Positions 30,201 through 33,200 of a DNA stretch of 38,594 nucleotides are shown here, in pieces. Origin of the DNA: Escherichia phage phi467; the sequence record LN997803. One strand, written 5' to 3'. Within the stretch, counting starts at the first letter, position 1. Each line of letters begins with the position of its first letter. The position numbers were made by a program.

Positions 30201-33200
30201 AAACTGATAGCACTCTGGTTATCACTTTTACATATAAAGGGGTTCTGTGTCGGGAGCCCCTCTCCAGAATGGAAGTAAACGCGCGCGGTGTGAAGTACGC
30301 CGAGCGTCTGCTGGGAGAAATAAAAAATCAGATTATCGATGGTACCTTCGAATATGCGAAATATTTCCCCAATTCCAAAAAACTGGAGTTATTCGGTGTA
30401 GTAAAGAAAACCAAAAATATTAAGTCCTATCTTGATGAATACCTGAAAATTTGCATAAACCGTAATCTGTCGCCGTCAACCATTGGCGGTTACGAAAAAT
30501 GTCTATCAGCACTATCAGAACTACATAAACTACATGTAACAGAATTGACGCCTGCGATACTAAAAAATTGGATAGCCAGCCGAAAAACTAGCTGAAAACA
30601 ATCAGGAATAACCTGTCATTTCTGCGCAGCGCCATTGATGAAGCTGTTACGGATGGCCTGCTGACCATTAACCCGGTAACCCTCGTCAGCGCCAGCCGGT
30701 ACCACGTGATCGACAGTAGCCCGAGCGCCGACGATTACGAGGTTGACCCGTTCACGCCAGCGGAGACCCTTGCCATTTACCAGAGCTGCAGGTACAGGGA
30801 ATGGGAAAACCTGTTCCGCTTTGCTTTCAATACAGGTCTGCGGAGCTCAGAACTGTGCGCGCTGCGCTGGGCTGATCTCGACACCATCGCGAACACAGCC
30901 CACGTTCAGGCGGCCAGTGTCGTAGGGGTACTTAAAGGCACCAAGACAAAAGCCGGTACCCGTAAGGTGGAGCTGAACAGTGAGGCGCTGGCAGCCCTGC
31001 AGGCGCAGAAGCAATACACCTTTATGAAAAGTGAGTTCATATTCAGCGATCCGAAAACGGGAGAACCCTGGACGAACGCCGACGCTATCCGTAAAAAAGC
31101 ATGGGTGCCGACCCTGAAAAAAGCTGGTGTGCGCTACCGTAACCCGTACCAGACGCGCCACACATTCGCCACCAGACACATTAGCCAGGGTGTAAACCTT
31201 TTCTGGCTTGCCGGGCAGATGGGGCATAAGGGGCCGGAAATGCTGTTCCGCAATTACGGTAAATACCTGGCTGAATACGATGGTAAAACGTCTATAAATG
31301 TTGTGTCAAGCTGAGTACATAGGCTTAAGGCTGATGAAAATTAAGAATGAGTCTACCATTGCTTTTTGTGAAATGAGCTATCATCTATGTTATTGATAGT
31401 TTCCATAGTTCATTTAGGTAATTGTAAATTTAATTAAAATCAATAACTTACATCATAGCAAGAAATGGAGTGCAAATATATTTCTTGACTTCACGTAAGT
31501 TACTTTATTGCAATAAATTTTCACTAGGACAGTGCAAGGACACTGATAGTACTTGATGAGTCCCAGTACAAACTGTTATCCTGTGCTCCACAAATTCTAA
31601 AACTTTTATGTTTTTTTACTTTTCAAGAGCTTAACGTAGGTATCGGCGAAGCACCACAACTGGAGTGAACACTATGAAAAAGACACTGACCGTAGGTTTC
31701 GGTGAAGGTTAACTACAACCTAAAATTTTAAAACAAACCTCCATTAGCACAATAAGGCCTCCCATGCGGAGGTCTTTTGTTATAGGAATCAATAAGATGG
31801 CGAGAACATTAGTCAACGTCAGCGCTACAATTTTTGCTCTAATGATGATTGTCAGAGCACTTTTTACTTATATCTACCCTGGAAAACTACCATTTAGCAT
31901 CGCCATCATTGATTGGCTGATCGTCATTGCTGGTTCTGGTGCAGCAATATCTTCTATCTTCTGCTTCATCAAAAAACGCTATCCAGACACTGCAGAATTT
32001 CTTCCTATGTTCAGCACTGTTTGTTATGTGATTATCCTTATTGGATATGCAATTTTAAGGTACACACCGGCCTATCAAACATCGCTTTCGATCATGGTTA
32101 CAGGAATGCTCGTTGGAATGGGATGGTGGATACAATGCATAACGTCCGCTGCTAACACGCGCAGGTCCCACACGCTGAACATGATCATTAACACCCGAAC
32201 AAGCCCGGAGTACCAAAAACAGCTTCGGAACAGCACCAAATTCTATCGGGGCATGCGTTATGTACCACAAGAACTATCAGAGTGGCGCTGCAACCCAGAC
32301 AAAGAAGAATACAAGAATATGAAGGTCCCCGATGAGTACAGGGATGCCATCAATGGCCTTTTATATATTCTTAATTATTTCGAGTTTCTTGCGCAGGGTA
32401 TCAAGTTCAAGGATTTGGATGACGAATTACTGAGGGAGTGCTTCTCCAGCTTCTTACGCGGGATAGAACGTCGTGGCTTCCACATGATCTTAGAGTCTCA
32501 GAAACAGGACCCTGCAGCCTTTGAAGGAATAATCTACCTTTCAAAAAAATGGAACGGAACATCGTTTGTTGAAACCCACCGTTCCAACCCTAATACGGTT
32601 GAGCTCGGGGTTCCATATCCTTCAAACGATATGGTTGAAAAAATGGTTCAAGGTCAGCCGTTAATAGATAGCGACGCAGGGCCGGAACTTCAAGTGGCCA
32701 CTTAATCTCGTTGTATGGACCAAGAGAGGACCAGAAAATGCACTCAAAATGCACTTGAGGCATTTTTAAACAGAGAATGCATTGTTATTCAATGGGTTAA
32801 GCATTGCTCGGGCACGGGTTCAACTCCCGCCAGCTCCACTTTTTAGTTGTTTGAAGTTCAATGAAGTCTACTAAGCACACAGCACAAGCTCTGCGGGCTT
32901 TTTTACGTCTATTGTCGTCCAGTGAGAATTGCTGAGAACTACGAGTTATGGCACCCTGAATGGGACCCACTAAGAAGGGTCCAAAAACCGAGGGTCCCAA
33001 AATGGCAAAAATCGCTAAGAAGCTCACTGACACTGAAATCAAAAGCACCAAGCCAGCCGATAAAGAAATCAACTTGTTTGACGGTGATGGTCTGATTCTA
33101 CGAATCGCTCCTTTGGCGAAAGGAGGCAAGAAAAATTGGTATTTCAGGTATGCAGTACCCGTGAGCAAGAAAAGAACCAAAATGAGCCTTGGGACATATC

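Follow-up and report, generated by a model that had tools for sequence, protein, structure and literature searches.

The integrase gene (int) of the Stx2f prophage phi467 is deposited in two reading frames, which raises the question of whether this Shiga toxin (Stx) prophage has truly lost its integrase or whether the break lies in the sequence record. The window analysed here is the entire record LN997803, 38,594 nucleotides (nt) comprising a partial Stx2f prophage plus flanking DNA, which was obtained as a 38,594-bp 'partial VT2f phage sequence' from whole-genome reads of EF467, an O26:H11 isolate of sequence type 21 (ST21) from haemolytic uraemic syndrome (HUS; Grande et al. 2016, PMC5189129). 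The split probably arose as a base-calling or assembly artefact in Ion Torrent data that were left unpolished, and the gene in which it sits is a natural hybrid, formed by recombination between two integrase alleles.

As the original prediction had noticed, the coding sequence is indeed interrupted in the record (Table 1). The upstream frame (frame A), which opens at ATG 30140 or TTG 30113, ends with AGC CGA AAA ACT AGC TGA, and the remainder lies in frame B (−1 relative to A), which carries a TAG at 30589–30591 and from 30592 runs uninterrupted to a stop at 31312–31314. Frame B encodes LKTIRNNLSFLRSAIDEAV and onward, including the whole catalytic domain; the record annotates just 30706–31314 of this 3′ part (GTG start, 202 residues, 'XerC', CUW01259.1). 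This C-terminal piece has no ATG and offers only an internal GTG that is not preceded by an obvious ribosome-binding site. The record thus holds 151 + 240 codons in two frames in place of a single open reading frame (ORF) of about 390 codons, whereas homologous integrases are single ORFs in 120 of the 120 clusters listed and in both parental alleles described below.

A single inserted base restores one 391-codon ORF, as predicted, but enumeration of the positions shows that it does so only after 30589–30594; most of the range originally proposed (about 30594–30597) is wrong because an insertion past the TGA cannot help. Comparison with intact integrases, which had been set beforehand as a test, bears out the missing base and locates it: all intact homologues have one more A, at 30589/30591, where the A-run is A2 in the reference and A1 in the record. 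The break site reads ACTAGCTGA and ACTAGCTG in its frameshifted form, as it would stand if the deletion were real, and ACTAAGCTG in its intact form. Among the best matches listed, the O26-type allele carries the extra base in each complete genome (1,232 nt, versus 1,231 in the record). The intact parental proteins are present on at least 1,000 and on 736 contigs, and an exact-sequence look-up finds the truncated product ending in RKTS* only in phi467.

Contrary to the original prediction, the break does not lie in a linker between the N-terminal and catalytic domains. Pfam assigns residues 12–80 of the repaired protein to Arm-DNA-bind_2, about 95–180 to a SAM-like domain and 211–373 to Phage_integrase, so that codon 151 falls within the SAM-like core-binding domain. 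The arm-type DNA-binding domain is recognized on the 151-residue fragment (PF12167, Arm-DNA-bind_2, residues 12–80, E 5.9e-20). As deposited, the core-binding domain is incomplete, PF14659 scoring 20.0 bits on the fragment against a cut-off of 22.6; with the A restored, a core-binding match to PF13102 appears at 97–180 (25.8 bits, cut-off 22.3). The catalytic domain matches PF00589 (Phage_integrase, E 8.9e-19), and the query contains the active-site motifs LRSSE, RHTFATR, MGH and NYG, as read from an alignment to Tn1549 Int and not residue by residue. The locus is completed by an adjacent excisionase gene (xis) and by an att core that repeats the 3′ end of ssrA. The excisionase is assigned by PHROGs (phrog_2917, 'excisionase', E 1.5e-40) and shows no differences from the Stx2f-phage reference; a Pfam search of xis gave no match.

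The origin of the gene was traced by aligning the int alleles WP_062860143 (complete genomes 377323_2f, 2015C-4136CT1 and STECUZB006) and WP_000516611 (O26:H11 strain 11368) with the record. In this three-way alignment, phi467 follows the Stx2f allele up to 30349 (50 of 50 informative sites) and the O26 allele at all informative sites from 30358 onward; int is therefore a recombinant, a point that the original prediction had missed. The Stx2f-derived part consists of the 5′ 210 nt (codons 1 to about 70) and is 100% WP_062860143-type, and the rest of the gene is 100% WP_000516611-type, the downstream DUF4760 gene and attR being likewise O26-type. The int–DUF4760–attR arrangement is the same in O26:H11 11368.

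The chimera exists as one molecule. EF467 alone among the Stx2f strains gave the expected 8.8-kb product of the fourth long polymerase chain reaction (PCR4; PMC5189129). Primer mapping shows that the PCR4 forward primer (22172) is specific to Stx2f phages and the reverse primer (30960) to O26-type int; each primer thus belongs to a single parent, and the EF467 amplicon therefore links the two halves physically. A misassembled hybrid was considered and rejected, since the 8 nt of identity at the junction, embedded in otherwise ~80%-identical sequence, are too short for a de Bruijn k-mer misjoin and since the amplicon is confined to EF467. A 50-mer across the junction had no match in IMG/VR or in JGI metagenomes. 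This structure points to recombination with a resident ssrA prophage as the route by which the Stx2f phage established itself in O26. The chimeric int is an ordinary, if well-documented, instance of lambdoid mosaicism at the xis/int module boundary, and the locus is not a novel type of system.

Between the two parents, the candidate P′ arm regions (32700–32815, O26-type, and 43265–43355 of the Stx2f reference genome L007) are ~67% identical, and AAAATGCAC-like repeats, possible arm-type Int binding sites, are common to both. On the basis of this shared arm sequence, a hybrid Int, if intact, might plausibly remain functional.

The single-base deletion has to be judged against the history of the record. 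phi467 was built in silico from Ion Torrent reads (Personal Genome Machine, PGM; 400-bp chemistry) assembled with SPAdes, and its structure was verified solely by four long PCRs with restriction fragment length polymorphism analysis, base-level finishing being unreported (PMC5189129). It is thus the product of a flow-based platform without polishing or Sanger finishing, the setting in which Ion Torrent indel artefacts arise. High-frequency indel errors of the PGM amount to about 1 per 1–2 kb of reference and are mostly of a single base; they often fall in 2-3-mers if strand-asymmetric, and frameshifts arise from them in assemblies (PMC3623719).

Private indels also occur elsewhere in the record. 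The Stx2f-derived 30.3 kb was compared with two concordant complete genomes (L007 and L008), and the O26-derived 8.2 kb (30350–38594) with O26:H11 strain 11368. Six private 1-nt indels are found in the former, every one a change of run length, and both 9-mers of the record are 8-mers in the references. They include the breaks in tail gene M (−A at 897) and in the HK97-gp10-like gene (+T at 6469) to which the original prediction had pointed and which are confirmed as present in the record. The O26-derived part shows no substitutions at all, its only differences being the −A in int and a −CC at 32875. Counting int, the record holds eight private run-length indel events, or about 1 per 4.8 kb. 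M, gp10, the 306-aa gene and int have no substitutions relative to intact alleles, and the 306-aa gene is intact in many other prophages. A comparison between two high-quality Stx2f prophages gives 20 substitutions and one indel. An artefact predicts 1-nt run-length indels in excess of substitutions when near-identical references are compared, and this is the pattern observed.

A positive control for assembly error is provided by the 377323_2f prophage (L006, NZ_CP039404.1), which has 4 private substitutions and 12 private indel columns. In RefSeq, L, M, the tape-measure gene and TerL are annotated as frameshifted within 377323_2f 11975–24480. These indels are probably assembly errors too, and this prophage is unsuitable as a lone reference.

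Rough arithmetic allows the two sources of indels to be compared at int itself. From seven other events in 37.4 kb, about 0.22 error indels are expected in the 1.18-kb gene; with 0 substitutions in 8.2 kb and about 20 substitutions per indel, the expectation for real indels is at most about 0.02. An artefact is therefore favoured several-fold to more than ten-fold. The 2-mer AA would have been under-called as A in the PGM data, and the deletion would be missing from the actual EF467 DNA. EF467 int would then be one intact 391-codon tyrosine-integrase ORF, with an arm-binding domain (codons 1 to about 70) from a pigeon-type Stx2f phage and with core-binding and catalytic domains, DUF4760 gene and attR from the usual O26:H11 ssrA-site prophage.

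Several points weigh against an artefact. The int indel lies in a 2-mer, away from any long homopolymer, whereas five of the seven other indels lie in reference runs of at least 5; as a flow-call error it is the least typical of the set, and short-run errors alone would be expected at only about 0.06 per 1.2-kb gene (rough estimate). The repaired hybrid Int is absent from a 15-billion-protein collection and no known assembly gives the intact ORF, and exact-product look-ups of the 151-aa and 202-aa fragments returned no contigs and no independent EF467 assembly. The deletion stands, moreover, in the deposited sequence. Acquisition through recombination instead of integration would put no immediate selection on the prophage to retain int, and with a right end made by recombination with the resident prophage, Int may never have been needed for establishment. 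Were the break real, Int would be cut in its core-binding domain and parted from the catalytic domain, with a C-terminal piece that lacks an ATG or obvious ribosome-binding site and would be non-functional, so that the EF467 Stx2f prophage could not self-excise and would be locked in; the integrase that had been domain-swapped by recombination inside the resident int would have been knocked out then or already. Such a prophage, from a HUS isolate, could express toxin yet neither excise nor spread. We consider both the genuine lesion and this history of it unlikely. The complete absence of substitutions in the surrounding 8.2 kb leaves too little divergence time for a real indel to be expected, seven other run-length indels occur in the same PGM-only record and in part break otherwise intact genes, the mutation is found in no other genome or contig, and neither nonsense mutations nor other signs of decay accompany it. 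The proposal that an inactive integrase locks the Stx prophage in place is consequently unsupported, the broken genes being otherwise identical to intact alleles in a record that rests on PGM data only. Inheritance of the frameshift from the O26 resident prophage was also considered and rejected, the truncated O-type allele being absent from the protein collection.

The original prediction had offered a decaying prophage or systematic indel errors, and it is the latter that stands. Decay of the prophage as a whole, with M, gp10, the 306-aa gene and int truly frameshifted in a cryptic remnant, would account for four genes broken in the record and for a 28-nt deletion in the portal gene. It predicts nonsense changes and a ratio of nonsynonymous to synonymous substitution rates (dN/dS) near 1, whereas the 45 phage genes show no nonsense change, with 47 synonymous against 13 nonsynonymous differences, and lesions common to relatives, a further mark of cryptic prophages, are likewise not found. 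The broken genes are entirely without substitutions, the 306-aa gene carries its two indels in the longest of its A-runs (reference lengths A7 and A8), and all these genes are intact where near-identical prophages occur in complete genomes of PacBio or hybrid type; decay is accordingly very improbable. The substitutions instead appear to reflect recombination and purifying selection. An even more remote alternative, bordering on the negligible, is that the two frames are joined by programmed ribosomal frameshifting or that the halves are expressed as separate functional proteins. An overlap between the frames does exist and is closely preceded by an A5 run (30583–30587), but the frame B TAG at 30589–30591 reduces the productive overlap to 4 nt (30592–30595), in which no X XXY YYZ slippery heptamer fits. 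Hundreds of homologues are single ORFs of 390–391 residues, and as a separate protein the downstream piece would be without a proper start codon.

A base-calling or assembly error thus remains the best explanation of the split, which matters because phi467 (LN997803) is the reference Stx2f prophage of later comparative studies. Neither the split 'hypothetical protein + XerC' nor the breaks in M, gp10 and the 306-aa gene should be taken as biology; they are to be regarded as probable errors until resequencing. The breaks in phi467 provide no basis for calling the HUS-associated O26:H11 Stx2f prophage immobile.

Table 1. Coordinates in the window of the int region and of the private indels of phi467.
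Feature	Position	Strand	Description
Excisionase gene (xis)	29976–30185	+	69 aa, intact, overlaps the int start; phrog_2917
int, 5′ fragment	30140–30595	+	151 aa, CUW01258.1; arm-binding domain and first ~55 core-binding residues; stop TGA 30593–30595
Recombination junction in int	30350–30357	+	8 nt GAATATGC; Stx2f allele upstream, O26 resident ssrA-prophage allele downstream
Site of the single missing A	30589–30591	+	ACT-AGC in the record; ACT-A-AGC (Thr-Lys-Leu) in every intact homologue
int, 3′ part (−1 frame)	30592–31314	+	Remaining core-binding domain and entire catalytic domain
DUF4760 gene	31764–32705	+	Between int and attR; PF15956, E 8.2e-16; O26-type right arm
attR core	32815–32839	+	25-nt repeat of the ssrA 3′ end; ssrA 337–361 at 100% (blastn); right boundary of the prophage
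Run-length indel, tail gene M	897–902	−	A6 to A5; frameshift; gene otherwise identical to the reference
Run-length indel, HK97-gp10-like gene	6469–6477	−	T8 to T9; frameshift; gene otherwise identical to the reference
Two run-length indels, 306-aa gene	17798–18267	+	A7 to A6 at 17798; A8 to A9 at 18259; otherwise identical
Run-length indel, intergenic	23274		T5 to T6
Run-length indel, intergenic	26905		T4 to T3
Indel, intergenic	32875		CCC to C, shortly after the ssrA-like attR

Two further sets of differences from other Stx2f phages are of another kind. The helicase gene (21133–22791, minus strand) accounts for 38 of the 60 coding substitutions relative to other Stx2f phages, 35 of them synonymous, and its exact allele is common in non-Stx lambdoid prophages with different integrases (949 index blocks). 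This cluster is a recombination patch. The allele was considered as an EF467-specific handle and discarded, being too widespread (949 blocks) to be specific. In the portal gene (9393–10607, minus strand), comparison with three other Stx2f prophages shows a 28-nt deletion at 10062–10071, an insertion of 1 nt at a distance of 8 nt and a T>C change next to it. In sum, 27 nt are lost in frame, three codons are scrambled and no homopolymer is involved; a genuine deletion and a local misassembly are both conceivable.

The toxin genes stxA2f (15994–16953) and stxB2f (15718–15981), both on the minus strand, lie upstream of the genes for tRNA-Thr and tRNA-Gly (15051–15204). These tRNA genes adjoin the lysis genes and are not located between Q and stx (PMC7366253). 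At the other end, the record runs ~5.7 kb beyond attR (32840–38594) into a second integrative element and chromosome. This stretch encodes a P4-like integrase at 32960–34231 (Arm-DNA-bind_3, Phage_int_M and Phage_integrase domains), a response-regulator receiver and an ATP-binding protein, and it agrees with O26 chromosomes save for the 2-nt deletion (CC) at 32875.

Among known systems, the pattern of indels resembles the PGM errors described by Bragg et al. (2013; PMC3623719): they are single-base and run-length, their density is within 1 per 1–2 kb and they yield frameshifts in assemblies, a likeness in pattern.

The two parental loci are each close to one side of the junction. WP_000516611 (391 aa, 'Arm DNA-binding domain-containing protein') belongs to the ssrA-site prophage of O26:H11 11368 and of related O26, O111 and O103 enterohaemorrhagic Escherichia coli. 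Its locus is identical in nucleotide sequence from 30358 to the int stop apart from the missing A, and the DUF4760 gene, attR core and flanking island are alike, the island save for the −CC at 32875. The record differs from it in lacking one A (30589/91) and in taking its first 210 coding nt from another allele; over 30110–30349 it shows only ~80% nucleotide identity with the O26 gene. WP_062860143 (390 aa) belongs to the ssrA-inserted Stx2f prophages of 2015C-4136CT1, 377323_2f and STECUZB006 and to pigeon GT1/GT2 prophages (PMC11489412). These prophages use the same ssrA 3′-end core; the phage left of 30350 is ~99.7% identical to them, and xis and int codons 1 to about 70 are 100% identical. 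From 30358 onward the Stx2f allele departs from the record about once in every 3 to 10 bases, and the Stx2f-prophage attR lies 133 nt past int, with no DUF4760 gene.

More distantly, the repaired protein shares with lambda Int and Tn1549 Int the succession of arm-binding, SAM-like core-binding and catalytic domains. In sequence it resembles Tn1549 Int (6en0, E 1.3e-9) and lambda Int (1z1b, E 6e-6) only remotely. It differs from them in an arm-binding domain of the DUF3596/Arm-DNA-bind_2 family, and by sequence int belongs to a large enterobacterial family of 390–391-residue proteins that combine Arm-DNA-bind_2 and Phage_integrase domains.
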